The position numbers were made by a program, and so were the translations under genes. Below are positions 1 to 56,912 of a stretch of 64,000 nucleotides of DNA, in pieces; the stretch's first letter is position 1; each line of letters opens with the position of its first letter. The DNA is from Escherichia phage LHE83: sequence record OQ561750. One strand, written 5' to 3'. The notes beneath the pieces are model-generated. The model did not search any database. It was not told the DNA's origin and saw nothing but the letters and a program-made list of their open reading frames with translations.

Positions 1-144
1 CTGCGAGGCACTCGTAGTAATGTCGGAATTTTCTTCCTTAATCTCCTGTTAGGCTGGACGATGATTGGTTGGGTAGTGGCTTTAATCTGGGCTATCGTCG
101 CTGAACGTAAATCAAACGCACAAATCATTATTGTTAAGCAATGA
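1..144 (+). CDS. C-terminal fragment of a small hydrophobic protein (5' end outside window)
   Basis: Open frame from window edge to TAA at 142-144; hydrophobic stretch LLLGWTMIGWVVALIWAIVA; lies in the imm-region position of T4-type maps. Confidence 0.4.
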   Translation: MRGTRSNVGIFFLNLLLGWTMIGWVVALIWAIVAERKSNAQIIIVKQ

Positions 145-285
145 AAATAATTATTTTATTTCTTATAATGACTGCCTTTACCATTTATTGGGCAGTGGCA
201 ATTCCGCCAATGATTCCGACACTCATCATTGGATGGATTATTCTTATAGCACAAATTAAGTATAACTGTTTTAATTGAGGATATT

Positions 286-786
286 ATGAAAAAGTTAATT
301 ATCGCAATGAGTATGCTCCTATCAGGTTGCGCGGTCCAATATGGTGATACAGTTTCGGCTGATGAAGTTGGTAAAGCTCGTATCGCAGCTGAACAGAAAC
401 AATTCGATGGCGAAATGAAATTCCGTGCAGGTTCTGGACTTGTGTACACCCGAGCTAATAATCAATGCGGTAATAACTGTGCAAAATATGCTCAACAAGA
501 AATCGAATTCCAACGTGAACAAGAGTCCAAGCGTGAAGCGGTACTAGCCAAACACCAGGCAGAAATGAAGCGTCAAGATGATTTGTACAAAAAGCAGAAA
601 CTGTATGCGATGTGCGTAAACCATATCAATCTACAGATTTCCATCCACGAGGCTCGTTATTACGAAATGCTCGAAACCGAGAGCTTCGGTAAAGCTCGTG
701 ATTATAAGAAACAAATCGATAAGCTCAAGACCAAAGCACCGGCGGCAATAGAACAGTGTATTGAAATCGGTAAAGATAAGATTTAA
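286..786 (+). CDS. predicted lipoprotein, unknown function
   Basis: Signal peptide with lipobox LLSGC; SD GAGGA 6 nt upstream of ATG. Confidence 0.6.
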   Translation: MKKLIIAMSMLLSGCAVQYGDTVSADEVGKARIAAEQKQFDGEMKFRAGSGLVYTRANNQCGNNCAKYAQQEIEFQREQESKREAVLAKHQAEMKRQDDLYKKQKLYAMCVNHINLQISIHEARYYEMLETESFGKARDYKKQIDKLKTKAPAAIEQCIEIGKDKI

Positions 787-846
787 GCAATACCAATTTA
801 TTAAAAATAGTGTATAATGTACCTACATTCACTTGAGGAACAGATA

Positions 847-2520
847 ATGAAAAAGGTTGTTATTTTAGGCGCGGGTCTTGGCTCACGGTTGTATCCAATT
901 ACCAACGAAATCCCGAAGGTACTGGTTAACTACAAACAACATACTGTATTAAAACATTTGTATGATTTGTATAGTAATCAATCAGATGAAATTATTCTGG
1001 TTATTCACAGCAAATTTAACGACCTCGTTAAAGGCTATATTAAATCCATTAACATGATTAATAGTGATAAGCCTAAATTCACTATTCGTAACGTTGATGT
1101 TGCCAATGGTTCGGCTCATGCTATCGATTGCATTGCCGAAGATATCATTGGGCACAATGTCTTGTTTAACTGGTGTGATATTATTCCTGAAGGTCATAAA
1201 GTTGAGTGGGATAACGACTACTGTTATACCTATGGGACCGACTGTCGTTTTACATTTGAAGAACCGTACTTGCGTGAAATTGGTACCGGTGGTGGCGTAG
1301 TTGGCTTGTATCAGGTGGCTAATTGGACAGGTTTCGACCGTTCTAATTATGGTGAAGACCTTGCTGACAACCTGGATTCAATGGTCCATTTGACTGAACG
1401 TAAGTTAGACTTTGTAGTTGATGTTGGTGACAAACTGAAACTGGCTAAGGCCCATGAAGATTCTGAAATTAACCGTGAATTTAATAAATTAGAGTTCACT
1501 GAGAATCTAGCTATTAAAGTACCTACAAACGAATTAGGTAAAGAAATCCAATCTAAAGAAATCAATTGGTACAATTCTATTGATTCTGAATTCGTTCCTA
1601 GCATTGTAGACTTTGCTCCAGGTGAATTCATTAAAATGGAACGTATCTTTGGTCGAACCATGGCAGATGCCTACCGGTTTATGTCTAAAGAAACTAAAGT
1701 CCTAATGGTTTATAAGGTTATTAGTGCATTACGTTCGTTCGGTGGAACTATCGATAATCCGTCCGATGAGCAATGGTATTCTGATGTTAAGAAAGAAGTA
1801 TTGGACAAGGTCCTTATTCGTAATGCTTCTATTGCCGGATTGATTGAAGGCTTTGCTCCACAGGGTATTACCCATGTTAACGACTTCAAGGTAGGCGACC
1901 CAGAAAAACTTCTTCGTCACGCCTTAGAAATTCTGTCTGAACATAAAGAACCGTACCAACTTATTCATGGCGACCCGCACTACAGTAATATTATGTTGTC
2001 GGACGAAGGTAATATTAAAATCATCGACCCACGTGGTTATTTTGGTAATAGTTCTAAAGGCCCTGCGATTTATGATGAAGCTAAGGTGCTTTATTCTATC
2101 GATGGTTATGACAAATTTAACTCTGACCCTCTATGGGGTGGCTTAACTCGTAACGGAACTCGTGTATTCGTTGATATTGAAAAGGTTATGCCTTTAGATG
2201 ATATTCCGATGTGTACATTTAAGCACAAGCTCTGGATTGCCGTTATTTGGATGGCATTGGCAGGTTACTTTAAAAATAACCCTCTGAAAGCTCTGGGCGC
2301 TTATTACAATGGGCTATATCAACTGAGTGTGCTGCTGAAGCGGCATCCTCGTAAGCGTAAGCTTATCACAGGTGAATTCGTTGATGAAGTTCGCGACCCT
2401 ATCACGGCTCAAATTATCACTCGTTGTCCTGATAAGTGGGTTTTGCTTGACCAGGAAACTGGTGTAAAATATAAACCTACAGGTTCTACCGAACTCCACA
2501 AACAATGGAAGAAAATTTAA
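847..2520 (+). CDS. bifunctional sugar-1-phosphate nucleotidyltransferase / APH-like (anomeric sugar or choline-type) kinase
   Basis: N-terminal glycine-rich loop GAGLGSRLYPIT typical of GlmU/RmlA/MurU/LicC-type nucleotidyltransferases; C-terminal HGDPHYSNIM...IIDPRGY kinase motifs (APH/ChoK fold); start chosen at 847 (SD GAGGA), ORF-track start 817 lies inside the TATAAT. Confidence 0.75.
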   Translation: MKKVVILGAGLGSRLYPITNEIPKVLVNYKQHTVLKHLYDLYSNQSDEIILVIHSKFNDLVKGYIKSINMINSDKPKFTIRNVDVANGSAHAIDCIAEDIIGHNVLFNWCDIIPEGHKVEWDNDYCYTYGTDCRFTFEEPYLREIGTGGGVVGLYQVANWTGFDRSNYGEDLADNLDSMVHLTERKLDFVVDVGDKLKLAKAHEDSEINREFNKLEFTENLAIKVPTNELGKEIQSKEINWYNSIDSEFVPSIVDFAPGEFIKMERIFGRTMADAYRFMSKETKVLMVYKVISALRSFGGTIDNPSDEQWYSDVKKEVLDKVLIRNASIAGLIEGFAPQGITHVNDFKVGDPEKLLRHALEILSEHKEPYQLIHGDPHYSNIMLSDEGNIKIIDPRGYFGNSSKGPAIYDEAKVLYSIDGYDKFNSDPLWGGLTRNGTRVFVDIEKVMPLDDIPMCTFKHKLWIAVIWMALAGYFKNNPLKALGAYYNGLYQLSVLLKRHPRKRKLITGEFVDEVRDPITAQIITRCPDKWVLLDQETGVKYKPTGSTELHKQWKKI

Positions 2521-2879
2521 TGCATCTGTGTTTTGATATCGATAATACCATTACTCACTGGCAAGATGACCGTGATTACGAAAACTTTAAACCGGACACC
2601 GAAATGGTGTCCATGATTAATAAGCTTTATGATGAAGGGTACGAGATTACCTTGTTCACTGCCCGTGGTATGACTTCATGCGGCCCGGGTCGAATCTTGG
2701 TTGAAGTAGTTCCTGCATTAGTTAAGAACCTTGAAAAGATTGGATTGAAATATCACAATCTGCTTACACATAAGCCGAGTTATACTTTTATCATCGATGA
2801 CCGAGCAATCCGTCCTGACCACTTTAAAGAAATGGTTCGTGAAGGAACTCTTGAAACCTATAAGGCATATCATCCGTGA
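2520..2879 (+). CDS. HAD-superfamily phosphatase (small, capless type)
   Basis: Motif I FDIDNTIT near N-terminus, downstream T/K/DD motifs; TAATG overlap with previous gene (alternative start 2505). Confidence 0.7.
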   Translation: MHLCFDIDNTITHWQDDRDYENFKPDTEMVSMINKLYDEGYEITLFTARGMTSCGPGRILVEVVPALVKNLEKIGLKYHNLLTHKPSYTFIIDDRAIRPDHFKEMVREGTLETYKAYHP

Positions 2880-3412
2880 AACCAAAAATCATTGTTATCG
2901 ACGGCCCGGATAATTCCGGGAAGTCTACTTTAATTGAATCACTTTTATCTGATAAGAAATATCGTCTTATTGATTTCCCTAAAAAGATTAATGGCAAATG
3001 CATTTCATTAGGGACCGATAATGACAAGGCTTTAGTCGAGACGTTGTATAAGTTTTTAGACCCTAATTTCGTTTACATCCTTGACCGTGGTTATCCAAGT
3101 AATATTGTTTACTCGGGATTCCTTCGCGGTGAAATGGACCCTTATGTAGAACTGGAAGATTGGAAAAGGTTTAAATCTGAATTCAATATTATTGAGGTTA
3201 TTTTAACCCGTAATCCACTGGATAAAGACTTTGAAGATGACCTTATTAAATTAACCAAAGATGAGTTCAACCTAACTATCCGGCAATATGAAACATGTTT
3301 TGAAAACGTGTTTAAAATCTTAAATCACGACGGCCATAATAACTTGCTTAACGTCGATATGGTAGAATTAAAACGTCTGAATGAATATATTGAAAATAAG
3401 GTGAATAAATGA
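2876..3412 (+). CDS. thymidylate-kinase-like P-loop nucleotide kinase
   Basis: Walker A IVIDGPDNSGKST and DRGYPSNIVYSG resembling Tmk P-loop and DRxxxS..AYQG motifs; GTG start overlapping upstream stop (GTGA). Confidence 0.65.
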   Translation: MKPKIIVIDGPDNSGKSTLIESLLSDKKYRLIDFPKKINGKCISLGTDNDKALVETLYKFLDPNFVYILDRGYPSNIVYSGFLRGEMDPYVELEDWKRFKSEFNIIEVILTRNPLDKDFEDDLIKLTKDEFNLTIRQYETCFENVFKILNHDGHNNLLNVDMVELKRLNEYIENKVNK

Positions 3413-4107
3413 AACACATTACCGCTGTTAGTTTTGAAAACGCGTTTAAGCAAATGAACGAAGAAATCCTGGAAGCTCCACAGTTTGCAGTTGATTCTCG
3501 TATCGGCCGTTGTTATGAAATTGGTTCTGCTTCGGTAGAAGTACTGGATGCAAGCACCTATAAATTCACCGACCCTCGTATTAATCGTATCAACTATGAT
3601 TATGCCGAATCTTTCTGGAAGTTTATGATTTCTGGTGGTACTGACGCCGCCGAAGCATTTAAGGAATACCCTAATGTTGCTAAGTTCATTGATAAGCCGA
3701 AAAGTGACGTATTGCCTGCAAACTTCAACACTTTCTATGGACCTAGAATTGTGGCCCAACTCCCAGCCTTACTTAAAGAGCTTAAAGAGAAGCCTAACTC
3801 AAGACGAGTTGTGTTCCAAATTCTCCAAGAACAAGACCAAGCCCTCCTTGATTCTGACGAATCCTTAGAATATCCATGTACTGATTCAGTGACATATTAT
3901 ATTCGTGATGGACGTCTTTATGCACATACCCATATGCGTTCACAGAACTGTGCTATTGTTATGCAGCTGGATTTCTATCTGCAGGGTAAACTGATGGCCT
4001 TTATTGCTGAACAGTGTGGTGTTGGTCTGGGTACGTATTCCCATACTATGGTTAGTGCACACGTATTTGAACGTGATTTTGACTACGTTCGAGGATTCCT
4101 GAAATGA
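3409..4107 (+). CDS. thymidylate-synthase-fold enzyme, dCMP hydroxymethylase-like (divergent gene 42 homologue)
   Basis: SRRVVF, catalytic Cys in EYPCTD, HMRSQN and Asp (QLDFY) at the position of the TS specificity Asn as in T4 dCMP hydroxymethylase; only distant similarity to T4 gp42 by eye; ATGA overlap with upstream gene. Confidence 0.75.
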   Translation: MKHITAVSFENAFKQMNEEILEAPQFAVDSRIGRCYEIGSASVEVLDASTYKFTDPRINRINYDYAESFWKFMISGGTDAAEAFKEYPNVAKFIDKPKSDVLPANFNTFYGPRIVAQLPALLKELKEKPNSRRVVFQILQEQDQALLDSDESLEYPCTDSVTYYIRDGRLYAHTHMRSQNCAIVMQLDFYLQGKLMAFIAEQCGVGLGTYSHTMVSAHVFERDFDYVRGFLK

Positions 4108-4997
4108 GTTTGTTTATCGTTCCTATTTTCAGTATGCGTAGTTACGAAACAGGTGAATATGCCGTCCTTAAGGACGGTAATTTTCAACTCCATTTAAACC
4201 GTGCTTGCCCAGGTGATTATCTGGCTTATCCTAGAAATTCGAGCGATATCAAAGAATGCATTGAATTATTTCCTGAACTGAATTTTGTACCTCTTTGGTA
4301 TAAAGAAAATGCTTATGAAACTCGTAAACATTTTTGGTCTGAAAATGAGTTCGTTGTTGATTCGTTAATCGAATACTATGACTGCTCAGGATTGGTAACC
4401 GATATCACAGGTTATGATGGTGCTCATACCGTACAATTCAACTTTAACATTACAATGGACCCTGAAGTTCCTCGTTATTACATCGATGAGTTTATTGATA
4501 CCGACGTGGGTTCAGTTGAACGTTCGATTTATACCACAGTCCTGAATCAATGCCAGAAAGACGTCCTGGTGTCACGAGGTGCGTCCTCTGATAAGATTTT
4601 TGTAGACCAAAAGGTAATTAATCCGGCAGTAATTGAGCGTTACTCTGAAGGCCTAGCGCCTATTAAAATTGATGGTATTTTCCATCCATTCCGTATCTCT
4701 GATAAATGTTATCAATTCGAAAGAGTTGTAGACCAAGCTGCGGCTGAAGGTTCTCGCCTTTATATCACCGATCCGAATGATTCATTTAAGCGTGAAGACT
4801 ATCGTCCTGATGTAGAGATTATTAAATTCAAACCGAGTAAGGTTGAATATTATCAGATTCTGAAATCAAGACCTCATATCATTTATCATGAGAATCCCAG
4901 TTTAGTATTTCATCCTGGTCTAGCTGAATTCATTTATTTCGGTGCCCATATCCATTCTGAGCACGAAATGCCAAGTTATGAGGACGTGGTCCTTTAA
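4104..4997 (+). CDS. hypothetical protein at the beta-gt position (candidate DNA-modifying transferase)
   Basis: 297-aa ORF, ATGA-coupled to the 42-like gene and immediately upstream of uvsX; no motif recognised. Confidence 0.5.
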   Translation: MSLFIVPIFSMRSYETGEYAVLKDGNFQLHLNRACPGDYLAYPRNSSDIKECIELFPELNFVPLWYKENAYETRKHFWSENEFVVDSLIEYYDCSGLVTDITGYDGAHTVQFNFNITMDPEVPRYYIDEFIDTDVGSVERSIYTTVLNQCQKDVLVSRGASSDKIFVDQKVINPAVIERYSEGLAPIKIDGIFHPFRISDKCYQFERVVDQAAAEGSRLYITDPNDSFKREDYRPDVEIIKFKPSKVEYYQILKSRPHIIYHENPSLVFHPGLAEFIYFGAHIHSEHEMPSYEDVVL

Positions 4998-5074
4998 CGC
5001 TGTAAATGTGAAGTGATATAATTACCCTATCTTAAAACGTGAGTAAAATATAATGATGCCTATGGAAAAATATA

Positions 5075-6247
5075 ATGTCTGATTTAAAATCCCGTTTGAT
5101 TAAAGCTTCTACTTCTAAAATGACTGCCGACCTGACCAAATCTAAATTGTTTAATGGTCGTGACGAAGTTCCTACTCGTATCCCTATGCTGAATATTGCA
5201 TTAGGCGGTGCGTTGAATGCAGGCTTACAATCAGGTTTGACAATCTTTGCTGCTCCATCTAAACACTTTAAAACGTTGTTTGGACTTACCATGGTTGCGG
5301 CATATATGAAGAAATATCCAGACGCAATTTGTTTGTTCTACGACTCTGAGTTTGGTGCTTCAGAATCTTATTTCCGTTCGATGGGTGTTGATTTAGAACG
5401 TGTGGTTCATACACCAATCCAGTCAGTCGAACAGCTTAAAGTTGATATGACCAACCAATTAGAAGAAATTACTCGTGGCGAAAAGGTTATTATCTTTATC
5501 GACTCCATCGGTAACACTGCTTCTAAGAAAGAAACCGAAGATGCTTTGAACGAGAAAGTTGTAGGTGATATGACTCGTGCTAAATCACTGAAATCTCTGT
5601 TCCGTATCGTAACACCTTATCTGACCATCAAGGATATCCCTTGTGTAGCAATTAACCACACGGCTATGGAAATTGGTGGAATGTACCCTAAAGAGATTAT
5701 GGGTGGTGGTACTGGTATTCTGTACTCTGCTTCTACCGTGTTCTTTATCTCTAAACGTCAGGTTAAAGATGGTACTGAGCTCACTGGTTATGACTTCACA
5801 CTGAAGGCCGAGAAATCTCGTACGGTTAAAGAGAAATCAACGTTCCCGATTACAGTGAACTTCGAAGGTGGTATCGACCCATTCAGTGGATTGCTTGAAA
5901 TGGCTACTGATATTGGCTTTGTCGTGAAACCTAAAGCTGGCTGGTATAATCGTGCATTCCTTGACGAAACCACAGGCGAAATGGTTCAAGAAGAAAAAGC
6001 ATGGCGTGCTAAAGCTACTGATTGTGTTGAGTTCTGGGGACCACTGTTTAAACATGCTCCGTTCCGTGAAGCAATCGAGAATAAGTATAAGCTTGGTGCA
6101 ATTAATTCTATTAAAGAAGTTGACGATGCGGTTAATGACCTTATTAACTCTCGTGTCTCTAAGAACGTTGCTGTTAAATTAGGTGGTAATGCCCAAAGCG
6201 CCGCTGATATCGAAAACGATTTGGAAGAGATGGATTTAGATGACTGA
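5075..6247 (+). CDS. uvsX: UvsX RecA-like recombinase
   Basis: N-terminus MSDLKSRLIKASTSK... and RecA core closely match T4 UvsX by recollection. Confidence 0.95.
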   Translation: MSDLKSRLIKASTSKMTADLTKSKLFNGRDEVPTRIPMLNIALGGALNAGLQSGLTIFAAPSKHFKTLFGLTMVAAYMKKYPDAICLFYDSEFGASESYFRSMGVDLERVVHTPIQSVEQLKVDMTNQLEEITRGEKVIIFIDSIGNTASKKETEDALNEKVVGDMTRAKSLKSLFRIVTPYLTIKDIPCVAINHTAMEIGGMYPKEIMGGGTGILYSASTVFFISKRQVKDGTELTGYDFTLKAEKSRTVKEKSTFPITVNFEGGIDPFSGLLEMATDIGFVVKPKAGWYNRAFLDETTGEMVQEEKAWRAKATDCVEFWGPLFKHAPFREAIENKYKLGAINSIKEVDDAVNDLINSRVSKNVAVKLGGNAQSAADIENDLEEMDLDD

Positions 6248-6569
6248 TTTATCTGATTTAGATAATTTCGTTAAAGATACCGAAGAGGGTCCTAGTGACC
6301 CTCGTTATTATGAGAAATCGTTAGATATAATCCGTAAGTCAATGGGGTCTGTTAAGCAGGAAATTATGCTTACTTTACCCGATGGCACTGCTCACATCGT
6401 TTATGTGATGAATATTGTTATTGAGAAAGATGGAAAAGTGTCGGTTGATTTCGGAACACCTTCCGAAGACCGAAAAGAAGAGCTAGCGCTTCATGTAGAA
6501 AAATGTGTTACAATGCAAATACAAGAAGAACTGGATAAAATTAAATCTAAGAGGTGGTGGAAGTGGTAG
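6240..6569 (+). CDS. 40: gp40-like head vertex assembly chaperone
   Basis: Size and position between uvsX and 41 as in T4. Confidence 0.6.
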   Translation: MTDLSDLDNFVKDTEEGPSDPRYYEKSLDIIRKSMGSVKQEIMLTLPDGTAHIVYVMNIVIEKDGKVSVDFGTPSEDRKEELALHVEKCVTMQIQEELDKIKSKRWWKW

Positions 6570-7993
6570 AAACTATTTTGGCTCAACTGCTAGGCAATAG
6601 TGATTATTTCACTAAGGTCTGGCCTTATATGAATGATTCTTATTTTGACCAGGGTCCTGCAAAGACCCTTTTCAAAGAAATTAAAAAACACGTCAATGAA
6701 TATAATGCAGTGCCTTCTAAGAACGCGCTGAGCATTGCATTAGATAACAGCACGCTTTCAGAAGTTGAACACCAAGGCGCTAAAGAGCTTTTAAGTTCAC
6801 TGAATGCCGGACCTGAAGACCAAGAATGGTTGGTTAAAGAGACGGAGAAATACGTTCAGAAAGCAGCGATGTATAATGCAACTTCAAAAATCATTGAAAT
6901 CCAAACTAATGCAGACCTTCCGGTTGAGCAACAAAATAGAAAACTTCCAGGTATTGGTGCTATTCCAGATATCATGCGTGATGCATTATCGATTTGTTTC
7001 GATTCTGAATTAGGTCATGACTGGATGGATGACTATGAAGAACGTTTCAAAAGTTATTCTGATAAAGCACGTAAGGTTCCGTTCCGTCTTAATATTCTGA
7101 ATAAGATTACCAAAGGTGGTGCCGAGTTTGGTACTGAAAACGTATTGTTGGCAGGAACAAACGTAGGTAAGTCTCTTGGTCTTTGTTCATTGGCTGCTGA
7201 TTATCTTCAATCTGGTTACGATGTTCTTTATATCTCCATGGAGATGGCAGAGGAAGTATGTGCTAAGCGTATCGATGCCAACCTTCTGGATGTGTCACTG
7301 GATGATATCGATGACGGCCATGTCTCTTGGCCTGAATATAAAGCTAAGATGGATAAATGGCGTTCAACTGCTACTTTAGGTCGTTTAAAGATTAAACAGT
7401 ACCCTACCGGTGGCGCTAATGCCGATACATTCCGTGCATTATTAAACGAATACAAACTCAAACAAAACTTTGTTCCACAGGTCGTTATCGTCGACTACTT
7501 GGCCATCTGTGCATCATCTCGTACGAAAGTTTTCTCTGAAAACAGTTACGGATTGATTAAGATGGTAGCCGAAGAACTACGTGGACTTGCAGTAGAAAAG
7601 AAATTATTGTTGTGGACTGCAGCCCAGACTACTCGTGGTGCGAACGTTGCAGCCGAAATCGATATGGCTGATATTGCTGAATCCTTTGGTATTGCACATA
7701 CTGCAGACTTCATGTTAGGTGTGGTCGAGACAGAAGAGTTTGCTCAGATGGGTATGCAGATGGTTAAGCAGCTTAAATCTCGTTATGGTGATAAGAGCTA
7801 CTACAACAAATTTAAGATTGGTGTTAAGAAAGGAAATCAACGTTGGTACGAAGTTGAAGACGATTCCAACCCAGGCCAGGTGAACACCGTTCGTGAGGCT
7901 ACAGGTGAGATGAATCGTCAAGCCGAGGTCAATCGACAGACGCTTGTTAATAGAAGTGATTTGGACGATTTAGCAGCATCTATCAAATTTTAA
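6554..7993 (+). CDS. 41: replicative DNA helicase gp41 (DnaB-like)
   Basis: 479 aa; Walker A AGTNVGKS; strong match to T4 gp41 by recollection. Confidence 0.95.
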   Translation: MVEVVETILAQLLGNSDYFTKVWPYMNDSYFDQGPAKTLFKEIKKHVNEYNAVPSKNALSIALDNSTLSEVEHQGAKELLSSLNAGPEDQEWLVKETEKYVQKAAMYNATSKIIEIQTNADLPVEQQNRKLPGIGAIPDIMRDALSICFDSELGHDWMDDYEERFKSYSDKARKVPFRLNILNKITKGGAEFGTENVLLAGTNVGKSLGLCSLAADYLQSGYDVLYISMEMAEEVCAKRIDANLLDVSLDDIDDGHVSWPEYKAKMDKWRSTATLGRLKIKQYPTGGANADTFRALLNEYKLKQNFVPQVVIVDYLAICASSRTKVFSENSYGLIKMVAEELRGLAVEKKLLLWTAAQTTRGANVAAEIDMADIAESFGIAHTADFMLGVVETEEFAQMGMQMVKQLKSRYGDKSYYNKFKIGVKKGNQRWYEVEDDSNPGQVNTVREATGEMNRQAEVNRQTLVNRSDLDDLAASIKF

Positions 7994-8014
7994 GGAGCTT
8001 CGGCTCCTTTTTTG
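7994..8014 (+). terminator. intrinsic terminator after gene 41 (GGAGC-UUCG-GCUCC + U-run)
   Basis: Perfect stem with UUCG tetraloop followed by TTTTTTG. Confidence 0.8.
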
Positions 8015-8022
8015 TTTTAAGG

Positions 8023-8051
8023 GTTTACATCTCCTGTAGGCGTGATACTAT
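8023..8051 (+). promoter_or_regulatory. early sigma70-type promoter (GTTTAC -35, 17 bp, TGaTACTAT extended -10)
   Basis: Consensus hexamers and spacing; followed by CCTATCAAC and SD/ATG at 8076. Confidence 0.7.
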
Positions 8052-8075
8052 AGACCTATCAACTTGGAGAACAAA

Positions 8076-8393
8076 ATGAAAACCATCGACTGTAAAGCAG
8101 AATATAAAGTGTATTATCATGGAAGTTGTAGTGTCGCTAATATCGGTAATATGCTTTGTCCTCCTGAGGAAACAGGAGTTTTGTCTGAAACCGGTCGTAA
8201 GAAAAACCTAAATCGTGTGTTCTTTACTGAAGATATCGGTTTGGCTAAGATTTATGCTGGACGTGCAGCCCGTTCAGTGGGAGGAGAACCTCGTCTTTAT
8301 CGTGTAATTGCTCCGGTGGATGTGGTTTGTTTAAATGATACTAAAGGCGCTACGGTTTATCATGCTGAATGGGCCTTCTGTGAGGAAATCTAA
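8076..8393 (+). CDS. hypothetical protein
   Basis: ORF with SD GGAGA; contains YYHGS...E pattern (weak ART-like). Confidence 0.55.
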   Translation: MKTIDCKAEYKVYYHGSCSVANIGNMLCPPEETGVLSETGRKKNLNRVFFTEDIGLAKIYAGRAARSVGGEPRLYRVIAPVDVVCLNDTKGATVYHAEWAFCEEI

Positions 8394-8597
8394 ATGCCTA
8401 AATTAGAGAAAGTAGTGTTTATTGGTTGGTTTGAAAATGGTAATATGTTTACCAAAGAAACCGTTCTGGATGTTAGTGACCAAAATATGATTGAATGGGT
8501 TACAGTGCAGTATGCAGAAGTGAATAATGCGCTGGTGAAAGCCTTTGTTGATGACAATAAAGTTTTTGAGTGTGATTACCGTTCTAACGAAAAATAA
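8394..8597 (+). CDS. hypothetical protein
   Basis: ORF with SD GAGGA. Confidence 0.5.
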   Translation: MPKLEKVVFIGWFENGNMFTKETVLDVSDQNMIEWVTVQYAEVNNALVKAFVDDNKVFECDYRSNEK

Positions 8598-8657
8598 CAG
8601 TTTACATCAAAGGGATAATGCAGTATATTATCCCTATCAACTACCGAGGAGAACATT

Positions 8658-8951
8658 ATGAAAAAGTTATTAATCGCAGCAATTCTTGCCGTAGCATCAT
8701 GTGGTACAGCTCCAGTTACTGCTGGACTTGATAAAGACCTTTGTGAATGGTCTATGACTGCAGACCAAGAATCGGTCGAACATCAGATTTATGCTGATAT
8801 CATGAACATCACTAAACGTGACCGCCCTGATATGGTTAAAGAAGTGTCAGACCAATTGGCTTCAAGCGGCGTTATGCAGTATAACTATGTTCTGTATTGT
8901 GACGCTAATTTCGATAACAAAAACATCGTTAAAGAGGTGACAGGTGAATAA
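8658..8951 (+). CDS. predicted lipoprotein
   Basis: Signal peptide with lipobox VASC; SD GAGGAG; preceded by GTTTAC promoter. Confidence 0.6.
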   Translation: MKKLLIAAILAVASCGTAPVTAGLDKDLCEWSMTADQESVEHQIYADIMNITKRDRPDMVKEVSDQLASSGVMQYNYVLYCDANFDNKNIVKEVTGE

Positions 8952-9384
8952 GATTAACAGAAATTTGGTTATCAAAAAACTTCGTTGTAAAAATCCAAAT
9001 GCACAAGCATACAGGATGTTTTGGAGCGACGACCACCAATACCTAGGTTATTTTCTTGTTGATAGCGATGATCGAATTACAATGGCTCATAAACTTCTTA
9101 ACAGAGAATTAAACCATTGGCAAGAACTTATTGCGGTGAGGTCTAAATTATTTTCATGCAATACAATGCACCAATTGGTTTATTTTTTCGCCGATGGTAT
9201 TCCTGACAAGGTTGAGTTTGATGGGTTTGAATTTAAAGATATCCACCCGGACAACGAATTGAACGACCGCGTTAATATAGATATCCCTAGCAAGTATATC
9301 AAAAACAGTCTGTTGAAAATTCTGGAAGCTCCGGTTTATTCAATTGACGACCAGATTTTTAATGCCTTTATGAATCGAGGTTAA
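8944..9384 (+). CDS. hypothetical protein
   Basis: GTG start with SD AGAGG. Confidence 0.5.
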   Translation: MNKINRNLVIKKLRCKNPNAQAYRMFWSDDHQYLGYFLVDSDDRITMAHKLLNRELNHWQELIAVRSKLFSCNTMHQLVYFFADGIPDKVEFDGFEFKDIHPDNELNDRVNIDIPSKYIKNSLLKILEAPVYSIDDQIFNAFMNRG

Positions 9385-11306: not shown

Positions 11307-11828
11307 ATGGCACACTTTAACGAATGCTCACAACTTATTGCTGGTGTTGATAAAGCTGAGGAAGCTTATTTTAATGCTCTGATTCACGAAGATAAAGACC
11401 CTCTGCAGGTTATGCTTGATATGCAGAAATCATTACAGGTCCGTTTGGCTAAAGATAAACCTGAATATAACCGTCATCCTGATGACTTGGCTACTGCAGG
11501 TGAAGTTGTTGATTGGTTGCGCAATCAGAAAGATTATATTGATGATGAATTCCGCGAACTTCTGACTTCTCTTGGTGGCATGAGCAATGGCGAAAAAGAT
11601 GCGAGCGCTGTATGGAAGCCTTGGAAAGCTCAACATGCTGAACGTCGTGAAACCCTGATTAACGATTTGTCTCCTGAAGACCAGCTCGAAATTAAATTCG
11701 AAATGATTGATATTCTGCACTTTGTTCTGAATATGTTCCAAGGTCTTGGACTGACTGCTGAAGAAATCTTTAAACTGTATTACCTGAAAAATGCCGAGAA
11801 CTTTGCTCGCCAGGACCGAGGTTATTAA
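11307..11828 (+). CDS. 56: dCTPase/dUTPase (MazG-like) gp56
   Basis: Size, position and similarity to T4 gp56 by recollection. Confidence 0.8.
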   Translation: MAHFNECSQLIAGVDKAEEAYFNALIHEDKDPLQVMLDMQKSLQVRLAKDKPEYNRHPDDLATAGEVVDWLRNQKDYIDDEFRELLTSLGGMSNGEKDASAVWKPWKAQHAERRETLINDLSPEDQLEIKFEMIDILHFVLNMFQGLGLTAEEIFKLYYLKNAENFARQDRGY

Positions 11829-51029: not shown

Positions 51030-52712
<1,683 letters not shown>

Positions 52713-52840: not shown

Positions 52841-55096
52841 ATGCAAGTACAAAAAAGTAGTGGTGTATCCCAAGATTTTGACGCACAAAAAATTATTAAA
52901 GTTCTGACTTGGGGCTGTGAAGGAACCCAAATCGACCCCTATGAATTATACGAAGAAATCAAATCTCACCTTCGTGATGGTATGACTACCAAAGATATCC
53001 AGAATCTGACTGTTAAGGTCGCAGCCAACCTTATTTCGGTTGAAGAACCTGACTATCAGTATGTTGCTGCAAAGCAATTGATGTTTGCACTGCGTAAAGA
53101 AGTTTACGGCCAGTTCGAACCACGTAGCTTTATCGACCATATTTCCTATTGTGTTAACGAAGGTAAATATGACCCTGAATTGTTGTCTCGATATTCTGCA
53201 GAAGAAATTACTTTCTTAGAATCTCATATAAAGCATGAACGCGATTTCGAATTGACTTATGCTGGTGCGATGCAGCTTAAAGAGAAATATCTGGTTAAAG
53301 ATAAAACAACCGGTAAAATCTACGAAACCCCTCAGTTCGCTATCATGTGTATTGGTATGGCCTTACACCAAGACGAGCCAGGTAATCGTTTAGCACATAT
53401 TATTCGTTTTTATGATGCTGTAAGTACCCGTCAGGTTTCATTACCAACTCCTATTATGGCTGGAGCACGTACACCAACCCGTCAATTTAGTTCTTGTGTG
53501 GTTATTGAAGCAGGCGACTCACTGAAATCTATTAACAAAACTGCTAACTCAATAATTGAATACATTTCTAAACGTGCCGGTATTGGTATCAACGTTGGTA
53601 TGATTCGTGCTGAAGGTTCTCGTATTGGCATGGGCGAAGTCAAGCATACCGGTGTTATTCCATTCTGGAAACATTTCCAGACTGCTGTTAAATCATGTTC
53701 ACAAGGTGGAATCCGTGGCGGCGCTGCTACTGCTTATTATCCTATTTGGCATTTGGAAGTTGAAAATCTGCTCGTTCTGAAAAACAACAAAGGTGTCGAT
53801 GAGAACCGTATTCGCCATATGGACTACGGAATCCAGATGAACGACCTTATGATGGAACGTTTCGGTAAAAATGATTACATCACGTTGTTTAGTCCTCATG
53901 AAATGGGTGGTGAGCTTTACTATTCTTATTTCGAAGACCAAGACCGTTTCCGTGAATTGTATGAAGCCGCAGAAAAAGACCCTAGTATTCGTAAGAAACG
54001 TATTAAGGCACGCGACCTTTTCGAATTGTTCATGACTGAACGTTCAGGCACTGCACGAATTTATCCTCAGTTCGTTGATAACACTAACAACTTCACACCA
54101 TTTATTCGTGAAAAAGCTCCTATTCGTCAGAGCAACTTGTGTTGTGAAATTGCTATCCCGACTACTGACGTGAATAGTCCTGACGCTGAAATTGGTTTGT
54201 GTACGTTGTCTGCATTCGTATTGGATAACTTCGATTGGCAGGACCAAGACAAAATCAACGAGCTGGCTGAAGTACAAGTACGTGCACTTGATAACCTGTT
54301 GGACTATCAAGATTATCCTGTTCCTGAAGCTCTGAAGGCTAAGAAACGTCGTAACCTGGGTGTTGGTGTTACGAACTACGCCGCTTGGTTAGCAAGCAAC
54401 TTTGCTTCTTATGAAGACGCTAACGATTTAACTCATGAATTGTTTGAGAGATTACAATATGGACTTATCCGAGCATCCATCAAGCTGGCCGAAGAAAAAG
54501 GACATTGCGAGTATTATTCAGACACTAAATGGTCTCGAGGCGAATTACCTATCGACTGGTACAATAAAAAGATTGACCAAATCGCAGCCCCTAACTATGT
54601 TTGTGACTGGACGTCGTTGCGGGAAGACTTGGCTAAACATGGCATCCGTAATAGCACATTATCAGCACTTATGCCGTGTGAATCAAGCAGCCAGGTTTCC
54701 AACTCTACAAACGGTATCGAACCTCCACGTGGTCCGGTAAGTATTAAAGAATCTAAAGAAGGTAACTTCCGTCAGGTAGTTCCTAATGTAGAACATAACC
54801 AAGGACTCTACGATTACGCTTGGAGCCTCGCTAAGAAAGGTAATAAACCTTATCTTACCCAAGTGGCAATAGCGTTGAAATGGGTGTGTCAATCGGCATC
54901 AGCTAATACATATTATGACCCACAGATTTTTCCAAAAGGAAAAGTTCCGATGTCGGTAATGCTTGACGACCTGCTGTATTTCTGGTACTACGGTGGTAAG
55001 AACCTTTACTATCATAATACCCGTGATGGCTCTGGTACTGATGACTATGAAATCGAAACTCCTAAAGCCGATGATTGTGCAGCTTGTAAATTGTAA
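52841..55096 (+). CDS. nrdA: ribonucleoside-diphosphate reductase alpha subunit
   Basis: 751 aa; ATP-cone, NLCCEI active site. Confidence 0.95.
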   Translation: MQVQKSSGVSQDFDAQKIIKVLTWGCEGTQIDPYELYEEIKSHLRDGMTTKDIQNLTVKVAANLISVEEPDYQYVAAKQLMFALRKEVYGQFEPRSFIDHISYCVNEGKYDPELLSRYSAEEITFLESHIKHERDFELTYAGAMQLKEKYLVKDKTTGKIYETPQFAIMCIGMALHQDEPGNRLAHIIRFYDAVSTRQVSLPTPIMAGARTPTRQFSSCVVIEAGDSLKSINKTANSIIEYISKRAGIGINVGMIRAEGSRIGMGEVKHTGVIPFWKHFQTAVKSCSQGGIRGGAATAYYPIWHLEVENLLVLKNNKGVDENRIRHMDYGIQMNDLMMERFGKNDYITLFSPHEMGGELYYSYFEDQDRFRELYEAAEKDPSIRKKRIKARDLFELFMTERSGTARIYPQFVDNTNNFTPFIREKAPIRQSNLCCEIAIPTTDVNSPDAEIGLCTLSAFVLDNFDWQDQDKINELAEVQVRALDNLLDYQDYPVPEALKAKKRRNLGVGVTNYAAWLASNFASYEDANDLTHELFERLQYGLIRASIKLAEEKGHCEYYSDTKWSRGELPIDWYNKKIDQIAAPNYVCDWTSLREDLAKHGIRNSTLSALMPCESSSQVSNSTNGIEPPRGPVSIKESKEGNFRQVVPNVEHNQGLYDYAWSLAKKGNKPYLTQVAIALKWVCQSASANTYYDPQIFPKGKVPMSVMLDDLLYFWYYGGKNLYYHNTRDGSGTDDYEIETPKADDCAACKL

Positions 55097-55737
55097 TGAA
55101 TTATCAAAAAATCTATAACAACCTAATTTCCCGAGCTCAGGCTCGGGAACCTTTATCTGAATATAAAGAGAATCATCACATAATCCCTAGATGTTTAGGT
55201 GGTTCTGATGATAAGGAAAATCTGGTTTATCTTACTGGGCGCGAGCACTTTATTGCACACTGGCTTCTTACAAAGTTTAATGATTATCCAGGCCTCAACC
55301 AAGCCTTTGGCATGATGTGTCTCACTAATAAAAATAGGCAATATAATGTTTCTTCTAGGTTATACGAAATAGGTAAAAAGCTTTTATCGGAAGCCATGAC
55401 TGGTAAAGAAATGGCTGAAGAGACTAAGAAGAAAATTAGTGAGACTATGAAAGGAAGGGAATTTACCGAAGAGCATTTGGCTCGCATGAGAAAGCCTAAA
55501 ACCGAAGAAGCTAAAAAGAATATAGCTTCTGCCAAAGTTGGTGCGCTTAATCCTATGTATGGTACAATTTCTCCTACAAGAGATGTCCCTCATACTAAAG
55601 AGACATGTGATTTAATTTCTTTGAAGACCAAAGAGAGAACAGACTATCCACCTTGCCCACATTGTGGCAAGAAAGTTAACAAAGGTAATGCTTTAAGATG
55701 GCATTACGATAAATGCAAATTTAAGGATTCTAAATGA
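55096..55737 (+). CDS. mobE: HNH homing endonuclease (MobE-like) with NUMOD-type repeats
   Basis: HHIIPRCLGGSDDKENLVYLTGREHFIAH HNH motif; repeated ...KKNIASAKVG / ETKKKISETMKG; between nrdA and nrdB as T4 mobE. Confidence 0.7.
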   Translation: MNYQKIYNNLISRAQAREPLSEYKENHHIIPRCLGGSDDKENLVYLTGREHFIAHWLLTKFNDYPGLNQAFGMMCLTNKNRQYNVSSRLYEIGKKLLSEAMTGKEMAEETKKKISETMKGREFTEEHLARMRKPKTEEAKKNIASAKVGALNPMYGTISPTRDVPHTKETCDLISLKTKERTDYPPCPHCGKKVNKGNALRWHYDKCKFKDSK

Positions 55738-56912
55738 GTACAGTTTTTAATACCGAACAGGTTGATGTTTTATCAGAACCTATGTTCTTTGGTTCAGGAT
55801 TAGGATTGGCCCGTTATGACATCCAGCGCCATAAAGTATTTGAAGAACTCTGTGAAAAGCAACTCGGATTTTTTTGGAGACCCGAGGAAGTTAACTTGAT
55901 GATGGACGGTGCTCAATTTAATAAGCTTCCACAATTCCAACAAAATATTTTTACCAATAACCTGAAGTATCAATCACTTCTGGATAGTATCCAAGGACGT
56001 GCTCCTTCTGCTGCACTTCAAGCCTTGATTTCAGACCCTAGCCTTGATACATGGGTGGCTACATGGACCTTTAGTGAGACTATTCACTCTCGTTCATATA
56101 CCCATATCATGCGTAACCTCTATACAGACCCGTCAAAGGTATTTGATGAAATTCTGTTAGATGACGCTATTATGAAACGTGCTGAATCTATTGGTCGTTA
56201 TTACGACGACGTTATTGAGAAAACTCGCTATTGGCAGAATGCTAAAGCTGATATCGAATACCAAAAAGAAATTAATGCAGACGAAGACGATATTGAAGAT
56301 GCTATTGAGCATGAGATGTATTGGAAGCGTGAGCTAATGAAATCCCTTTACCTTTGCCTTCATGTAATCAACGCATTGGAAGCTATTCGTTTTTATGTAT
56401 CTTTCGCATGCACCTTTAACTTCCATAAAAACATGGAAATCATGGAAGGTAATGCTAAGATTATGAAGTTCATTGCACGTGATGAACAGCTTCACCTTAA
56501 GGGTACCCAGTACATTATTCGTCAACTTCAACTTGGTACTGATGGTGATGAATGGGTTAAAATTGCTCAAGAGTGTGAACAAGAAGCAGTTGATATTTTC
56601 ATGGAAGTTAACCGTCAAGAAAAAGAATGGGCAGCTCACCTGTTCAAAGATGGTACTTGCCCTGGATTAAATACTCAGAACATGGGTGCTTTTGTCGATT
56701 ACCTGACAGTTTCTCGTATGAAGCAATGTGGCTTACCGTGTCCTATTACCGATGCTCCTGCCCGCCATCCTTATCCTTGGATTCGCGAATACCTGAACTC
56801 TGATGCTGTACAGGCTGCTCCTCAGGAAGTGGAAATCAGTTCTTACCTTGTAGCACAAATTGATAACGATGTCGATGAAAAAGTAATGGCATCGTACAAG
56901 AAATATTTTTAA
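55734..56912 (+). CDS. nrdB: ribonucleoside-diphosphate reductase beta subunit (intron-less)
   Basis: 392 aa; di-iron ligands, continuous ORF. Confidence 0.9.
   Translation: MSTVFNTEQVDVLSEPMFFGSGLGLARYDIQRHKVFEELCEKQLGFFWRPEEVNLMMDGAQFNKLPQFQQNIFTNNLKYQSLLDSIQGRAPSAALQALISDPSLDTWVATWTFSETIHSRSYTHIMRNLYTDPSKVFDEILLDDAIMKRAESIGRYYDDVIEKTRYWQNAKADIEYQKEINADEDDIEDAIEHEMYWKRELMKSLYLCLHVINALEAIRFYVSFACTFNFHKNMEIMEGNAKIMKFIARDEQLHLKGTQYIIRQLQLGTDGDEWVKIAQECEQEAVDIFMEVNRQEKEWAAHLFKDGTCPGLNTQNMGAFVDYLTVSRMKQCGLPCPITDAPARHPYPWIREYLNSDAVQAAPQEVEISSYLVAQIDNDVDEKVMASYKKYF

Follow-up and report, generated by a model that had tools for sequence, protein, structure and literature searches.

The fourth gene of a five-gene block in Escherichia phage LHE83, an open reading frame (ORF) at 3409..4107, in all likelihood encodes a 5hodCMP synthase (dCMP 5-hydroxylase), a protein with the thymidylate synthase (TS) fold for which flavin- and O2-dependent chemistry is assigned by homology. 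What the enzyme adds to dCMP is very probably a hydroxyl and not a hydroxymethyl group. We analyzed 64,000 nucleotides of LHE83 DNA (sequence record OQ561750), here called the window. Descriptions and crystal structures of the 5hodCMP synthase family appeared in 2025-2026, so the finding, though genuine, is not new; the enzyme family, its structure, the diagnostic residue and the presence of the enzyme in Dhakavirus had all been reported (Mahler 2025; He 2026; Lee 2026).

What was established directly for the ORF is its sequence and fold, its signature residues and its genomic setting. It starts with ATG, has AAGGTG 5 nt upstream of the start codon and encodes 232 amino acids, the stop codon being counted within the end coordinate; at both ends it overlaps with the neighboring genes in an ATGA (3409-3412 and 4104-4107). 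A tblastn search of 50,697 phage records found a homologue of the protein in 427 of them, and this conservation excludes a chance ORF. The identity was about 79% in RB69-like Mosigviruses, 86% in Klebsiella phages, about 70-71% in Acinetobacter Lazarus-like phages and about 30-35% in Rhizobium/Agrobacterium Pootjesviridae. The first 25 kb of the window is 97% identical in nucleotide sequence to Escherichia phages QL01 and E33 and 92% identical to JS98, and on this likeness the window is placed, with these three phages, in the genus Dhakavirus. An antisense ORF at 3325-3759 (144 aa) matched no PHROG family and was taken as spurious.

Table 1. Genes and active-site codons of the LHE83 window, with the counterparts or matches on which each assignment rests
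Feature	Position	Strand	Counterpart or supporting match
Sugar-1-phosphate nucleotidyltransferase (N-terminal) and APH-type kinase (C-terminal)	817..2520	+	Counterpart RB69 gp52:53, DLP3 gp82, HY126 AfhE
Small HAD-type sugar phosphatase	2505..2879	+	Counterpart RB69 gp51 (62% identity), DLP3 gp81, HY126 AfhF; phrog_1238
P-loop thymidylate-kinase-like nucleotide kinase, putative	2876..3412	+	Counterpart RB69 gp45 (37%); phrog_761 (thymidylate kinase)
Predicted dCMP 5-hydroxylase / 5hodCMP synthase, 232 aa, TS fold	3409..4107	+	Orthologue of RB69 gp48, DLP3 gp80, HY126 AfhB
Glu154 codon (ThyA Leu143; L143E)	3868..3870	+	MAFFT; invariant in 33-sequence alignment
Cys157 codon, catalytic nucleophile (ThyA Cys146, T4 gp42 Cys148)	3877..3879	+	Alignments; invariant
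Asn180 codon, D169N residue diagnostic for 5hodCMP synthases	3946..3948	+	MAFFT; invariant
Asp188 codon, cytosine specificity (ThyA Asn177, T4 gp42 Asp179)	3970..3972	+	Alignments; invariant
Putative DNA arabinosyltransferase 1	4104..4997	+	Counterpart RB69 gp46:47, DLP3 gp79; phrog_3891
gp56-type dCTPase/dUTPase, predicted	11307..11828	+	Pfam dUTPase_2; phrog_173, E 1.3e-46
Thymidylate synthase td, full-length	51855-52712		Pfam E 2.7e-99; 47% identity to E. coli ThyA

The assignment draws on full-length homology to a characterised member of the family, as RB69 gp48 and the LHE83 protein share 79% identity across 231 amino acids. According to Lee et al. (NAR 2026, PMC13326640), 5-hydroxy-dCMP is the product of RB69 gp48 and DLP3 gp80, both of them homologues of TS. 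In that study, RB69 gp48 yielded 5hodC in E. coli DNA, the oxygen was derived from 18O2, and FMN co-purified with the two enzymes. Dhakaviruses were named there among the genera that carry a syntenic cluster; in the accessible literature the genus is represented solely by comparative genomics.

Structural comparison pointed to the same family. When the protein was searched with phmmer against the PDB sequences, the best matches were 9IQU and 9IQC (E 1.5e-125), while MilA gave an E value of 2.5e-14 and T4 dCMP hydroxymethylase merely 4.7e-6. An AF2 model computed from a 33-sequence alignment (pLDDT 85.6) matched 9IQC in Foldseek with a TM score of 0.94 and 79% identity; the model also superposed on 9IQU, and it matched TS structures with E values of about 1e-12. 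Both PDB entries were released on 2025-07-16, 9IQC under the title "Monooxygenase dependent on riboflavin with dCMP and FAD" and 9IQU under the title "phage HY126 dCMP hydroxylase-AfhB with substrate dCMP". HY126 AfhB is about 79% identical to the LHE83 protein and nearly equal in length, and the HY126 sequence is of the RB69 type. The AfhB structures are reportedly the work of He et al. in Nat Chem Biol in 2026. The remaining 21% of residues in the LHE83 protein differ from those of the characterised enzymes.

The sequence-only reading had described a TS-fold protein with the motifs SRRVVF, EYPCTD (with the nucleophilic Cys), HMRSQN and QLDFY. All four were found, at residues 131-136, 154-159, 175-180 and 186-190, respectively, and the fold was borne out by the AF2 model and by Pfam, in which PF00303 (thymidylate synthase) matched with an E value of 4.8e-14, confined to the C-terminal half. 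That reading had also placed an Asp at the position of the specificity Asn in thymidylate synthases and of Asp179 in T4 dCMP hydroxymethylase, which would imply a cytosine substrate, and had judged the protein only distantly similar to T4 gp42, at about 30%. In a BLASTP alignment with T4 gp42, Cys157 corresponded to T4 Cys148 and Asp188 to T4 Asp179, and the identity was 25% over 159 amino acids (E 6e-12), so that the estimate by eye was roughly right.

The active-site signature was examined in a MAFFT alignment that included the RB69, Lazarus and Rhizobium AF3 homologues and T4 gp42, with the numbering of E. coli ThyA. At the Asp169 position, the LHE83, RB69, Lazarus and Rhizobium AF3 proteins all have Asn, whereas T4 gp42 and ThyA have Asp. 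The Arg126/Arg127 pair of ThyA corresponds to Arg132/Arg133 of the LHE83 protein, Arg166/Ser167 to Arg177/Ser178, and His207 to His218. At the Trp80 position, the four sequences of the hydroxylase family have Ala and T4 gp42 has Trp, in an N-terminal region that aligns less certainly. Trp80 of thymidylate synthase is a folate contact. The residues Glu154, Cys157, Asn180 and Asp188 were invariant in 33 homologues with 50-87% identity. Asn180, the residue by which the two chemistries can be told apart, lies inside the HMRSQN motif and was passed over in the earlier reading.

In the study of RB69 and DLP3, D169N is the residue diagnostic of 5hodCMP synthases, alongside N177D and L143E, and nine of nine further D169N homologues tested gave 5hodC (PMC13326640). 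RB69 gp48 and Acinetobacter phage DLP3 gp80 share with the LHE83 protein the whole signature of the Cys, L143E, D169N and N177D. We also ran an exhaustive HMMER search over 1.84 billion cluster representatives and scored the best 150 of the 50%-cluster representatives for the residue pattern. The Cys/Asn/Asp pattern was present in 69 of these 150, nearly all of the closest ones included, while 47 had Cys/Asp/Asp and were mostly more distant proteins of about 300 amino acids. The LHE83 protein thus belongs firmly to the clade of the hydroxylases.

It could be argued that the protein is a divergent but canonical dCMP hydroxymethylase, an orthologue of gp42 that makes 5-hydroxymethyl-dCMP from methylene-tetrahydrofolate, with the resulting hmC then being arabinosylated. 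The gene occupies the genomic slot of T4 gene 42, between imm and uvsX; the protein shows the TS fold together with the Cys and an equivalent of Asp179; several public records label close homologues (about 78-84% identical) as dCMP hydroxymethylase; and RB69 DNA was itself read in 2018 as containing arabinosyl-hmC (Thomas et al. 2018, PMC6024577). However, later work corrected the RB69 assignment, and the sugar is now placed in an ether linkage on 5-hydroxycytosine (PMC13326640; PMC13390438). T4 gp42 (EC 2.1.2.8; PDB 1B5E) does resemble the LHE83 protein in fold, genomic slot, the logic of dCMP recognition and the acidic residue at the L143 position, but the identity between the two is low, Asn stands where gp42 and ThyA keep Asp169, and Ala stands opposite Trp80, where the alignment is less certain. 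The nearest solved structure (9IQC) contains FAD, not folate. T4 gp42 uses methylene-THF, forms 5-CH2OH and works with glucosyltransferases, whereas the hydroxylase family uses flavin and O2 (as in the solved structure), forms 5-OH and works with arabinosyltransferases. On this balance we consider a canonical hydroxymethylase very unlikely.

The same comparison bears on the neighboring genes. The sequence-only reading had taken the flanking core genes to be 75-100% T4-like, which was overstated for the three that were tested, as the identity was 66-67% for uvsX, 65% for gp41 and 49% for gp40. Even against these values of 65-67% for uvsX and gp41, the 25% identity to gp42 falls short of orthologue-level similarity. 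When the two queries T4 gp42 and T4 beta-gt were searched by tblastn against the window and QL01, the only match was that of gp42 to the ORF at 3409..4107, at 25% identity. A second canonical gp42 elsewhere was likewise dismissed, as tblastn gave no match in either the window or the remainder of the QL01 genome, which is 97% identical.

A TS-fold one-carbon transferase with an altered donor or acceptor, either a dCMP methylase or a hydroxymethylase using another nucleophile, is in our judgment even less probable. In its favor, the LHE83 protein has the TS fold and N177D, and N177D alone is enough to make thymidylate synthase a dCMP methylase (literature cited in PMC13326640); the Glu at the L143 position also resembles that of hydroxymethylases (PMC13326640). 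Yet the orthologues with 79% identity are hydroxylases, as judged from the mass of the product, from labelling with 18O2 and from a crystal structure with bound flavin, and D169N is common to all nine further 5hodC producers that were tested. The suggestion that the enzyme has altered product chemistry stood in part: the chemistry does differ from that of gp42, but the change is most probably to flavin- and O2-dependent hydroxylation, not to another one-carbon donor or nucleophile. The idea that the protein is a second thymidylate synthase, redundant or decayed and without a part in DNA modification, might be drawn from the label "thymidylate synthase" in many public records, but it can be given practically no weight, since the pyrimidine-specificity position is Asp and not Asn, a full-length td is present, the active site is strictly conserved across 33 homologues, and the gene is translationally coupled within a block for sugar activation and glycosyl transfer. 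Each of these three readings conflicts with the diagnostic Asn180, with the identity of 79% to enzymes proven to be hydroxylases and with the FAD present in the solved structure.

Two folate enzymes mark the distance of the protein from the rest of the superfamily. Among structures from outside phages, MilA (5JNH/5B6D), the CMP 5-hydroxymethylase of mildiomycin biosynthesis, matched best (Foldseek E 1e-15, TMq 0.85). It is likewise a TS homologue specific for a cytosine nucleotide, but it is only 24% identical, has about 320-340 amino acids, depends on folate and acts on a ribonucleotide. ThyA/td (EC 2.1.1.45) has in common with the LHE83 protein the fold, the Cys, the Arg-Arg pair that binds phosphate and the equivalents of Arg166, Ser167 and His207. 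The identity to ThyA is 25% over 115 amino acids, and the LHE83 protein differs by N177D, D169N and L143E and is shorter by ~45 residues at the C terminus.

The predicted dCMP 5-hydroxylase is encoded within a plus-strand block (817-4997) in which gene boundaries overlap or abut, and this block lies between imm and uvsX, the slot of T4 genes 42 and beta-gt. The product of the first gene has Pfam matches to NTP_transferase (residues 13-110) and APH (residues 356-427) and is 41-44% identical to RB69 gp52 and gp53. Its match to phrog_4098 starts at residue 11, and the true start may be the second ATG, at 847. The functions of the AfhE-like and AfhF-like counterparts of the first and second genes are taken from PMC13326640. 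In public records the second gene is labelled "phosphoheptose isomerase". For the third product, the putative nucleotide kinase, Pfam gave just weak AAA matches. The fifth product is 70% identical to RB69 gp47, 64% to RB69 gp46 and 50% to Lazarus gp075; the role of arabinosyltransferase 1 follows Table 1 of PMC13326640. Outside the block, the QL01 gene syntenic to that for the predicted dCTPase/dUTPase carries the label "gp56 dCTPase". In the region 1-5200, a promoter scan found 17 promoter-like sites against 16.7 expected from shuffled sequence, and a terminator scan found 2 terminator-like sites against 3.1 expected; neither scan outdid shuffled sequence, and we claim no operon signals on this basis. 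An Rfam scan of 1-9000 gave no match.

We infer the mechanism from the enzyme family and the pathway from the neighboring genes and the literature, and the cofactor, the product and each enzymatic step are those predicted by homology. Asp188 would select cytosine, and Cys157 would attack C6 of dCMP and thus activate C5, as in all TS-fold enzymes. C5 would not attack methylene-tetrahydrofolate but would take an O2-derived oxygen via a bound reduced flavin, and elimination of Cys157 would release 5-hydroxy-dCMP. The gp56 dCTPase would both supply dCMP and remove dCTP, a phage dNMP kinase and the host NDP kinase would convert 5hodCMP to the triphosphate, and the phage polymerase would insert 5-hydroxy-dCTP where C would otherwise go. 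Once in DNA, the 5-OH would be arabinosylated by the adjacent glycosyltransferase, with UDP-arabinose that the AfhE-like and AfhF-like enzymes, whose genes lie just upstream, would supply. It is the 5-hydroxylation of dCMP that would allow arabinose to be attached to the cytosines of the phage DNA, and the resulting arabinosyl-5-hydroxycytosine DNA would resist restriction enzymes and CRISPR.

The earlier reading had further suggested that the enzyme was exchanged together with the surrounding module. Relative to T4 this idea holds, because the whole slot of genes 42 and beta-gt is occupied by a different module. A recent horizontal exchange was considered and rejected: the GC content of the ORF (0.416) is like that of the whole window (0.396), and its identity to RB69 (79%) lies within the range of the core genes, between gp41 (68%) and uvsX (90%). 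The module is old, is shared across the lineage and takes the place of T4 genes 42 and beta-gt.

RB69 and Lazarus have neighbor genes of the same kinds, namely a bifunctional kinase/nucleotidyltransferase, a HAD phosphatase, a TMK-like kinase and a glycosyltransferase, but the kinase gene precedes the hydroxylase gene in the window and follows the glycosyltransferase gene in RB69 and Lazarus. We searched by tblastn for the other RB69 and Lazarus genes in the window and in QL01 loci L007-L009, which together tile a full Dhakavirus genome. Within this scope, no match was found for RB69 gp55 (arabinose-5-phosphate isomerase), gp50 (U32-like) or gp3 (second arabinosyltransferase), or for the two Lazarus GT-B enzymes. 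The sole mildly new point of the analysis is that the Dhakavirus cluster appears minimal: it has a single glycosyltransferase and lacks a phage arabinose-5-phosphate isomerase.

Since the cluster is without the isomerase, the U32-like protein and a second glycosyltransferase, the downstream sugar chemistry may differ from that of RB69. A single sugar per 5-hydroxycytosine is predicted, along with dependence on host arabinose-5-phosphate. One conjecture, which we hold to be improbable, is that the stripped-down Dhakavirus pathway yields DNA with a single sugar on 5-hydroxycytosine, built from a host-derived precursor. It is suggested by the single glycosyltransferase, by the missing isomerase and U32-like protein, and by the AfhE-like enzyme being only 41-44% identical to its RB69 counterparts. 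In a less likely version, the Dhakavirus sugar would be other than the arabinofuranose of RB69. The DNA of phages Bas46 and Bas47 carries double arabinosylation.

The route to arabinosyl-5-hydroxycytosine DNA begins with the 5hodCMP synthase family, which also shows strikingly how the fold of a folate enzyme was recruited to flavin- and O2-dependent hydroxylation. The modification protects T4-like phages against restriction enzymes and CRISPR and lays them open to Type IV systems, which is relevant to phage therapy candidates such as Dhakaviruses. For LHE83, the prediction is that the DNA contains glycosylated 5-hydroxycytosine, not hmC. The practical value lies in correcting annotation where records say "thymidylate synthase", "hypothetical protein" or "dCMP hydroxymethylase"; copies identical to the 232-aa protein in phages SHP1, UGJNEcP4 and PSD9 carry one or the other of the first two labels.

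We searched the window (1-64000) together with loci L007-L009 of the 97%-identical Dhakavirus QL01, equivalent to one full genome, by tblastn and found no match to RB69 gp55 (arabinose-5-phosphate isomerase), to RB69 gp50 (U32-like), to RB69 gp3 (the second arabinosyltransferase) or to the Lazarus GT-B enzymes. The arabinosylation set of Dhakavirus is minimal, with only one glycosyltransferase. Given this single enzyme and the lack of matches to the others, gene content predicts that Dhakavirus DNA would carry mono-glycosylated 5-hydroxycytosine and that the pathway would use arabinose-5-phosphate supplied by the host.

Features of the window discussed here, with the matches that identify them
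Feature	Position	Match
AfhE-like bifunctional enzyme	817-2520	
HAD phosphatase	2505-2879	
TMK-like P-loop kinase	2876-3412	37% identity to RB69 gp45
Glycosyltransferase	4104-4997	
Core genes adjoining the block	5075-7993	
frd (DHFR)	51043-52712, adjoining td	Pfam E 4.3e-19
td (thymidylate synthase)	51043-52712, adjoining frd	Pfam E 2.7e-99; 47% identity with E. coli ThyA
Large ORF (presumed nrdA)	52841-55096	
HNH-endonuclease-like ORF, 213 aa	55096-55737	Pfam HNH E 5.4e-5
Large ORF (presumed nrdB)	55734-56912	

The phage also has genuine frd and td genes, side by side, and it therefore has two TS-fold enzymes, td and the hydroxylase, with different jobs. Farther along, the HNH-like ORF is flanked by two large ORFs which we take, by T4 gene order, to be nrdA and nrdB, and is probably a homing endonuclease insertion.

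Outside the window, four metagenomic homologues of the hydroxylase clade (P0124, P0126, P0127 and P0131), 47-52% identical to the window protein, all have the E/C/N/D signature and, at 427-463 aa, carry about 200 additional C-terminal residues. In both of the proteins scanned against Pfam, this extension was a histidine-phosphatase domain (His_Phos_1; E values of 2.7e-13 for P0124 and 1.3e-8 for P0126). To our knowledge, a fusion of the hydroxylase with a histidine phosphatase has not been described before.

Among the best 150 cluster representatives, the diagnostic Asn180 position (ThyA D169) was occupied by Ser in 15, Cys in 5 and His in 3. All of these variants (selected proteins in the range P0129-P0262, also outside the window) retained Cys157 and Asp188. 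The published D169N rule does not predict which product chemistry the Ser, Cys and His variants have.

Within the cluster, the TMK-like kinase is the most divergent member, and GC content across the block is lowest in its gene, at 0.339. While the kinase gene lies 5' of the hydroxylase gene in the window, it lies 3' of the glycosyltransferase gene in RB69 and Lazarus. The core genes adjoining the block show a mosaic relatedness to RB69 and T4: uvsX is 90% identical to RB69 and 67% to T4, and gp41 68% and 65%, whereas gp40 is closer to T4 (49%) than to RB69 (38%).

The start codons of the bifunctional enzyme and HAD phosphatase genes are ambiguous. For the bifunctional enzyme, the PHROG alignment starts at residue 11, which implies initiation at 847, and the QL01 annotation has shorter forms of both genes (1674 nt and 360 nt, respectively). 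Public records mis-annotate the HAD phosphatase as "phosphoheptose isomerase."
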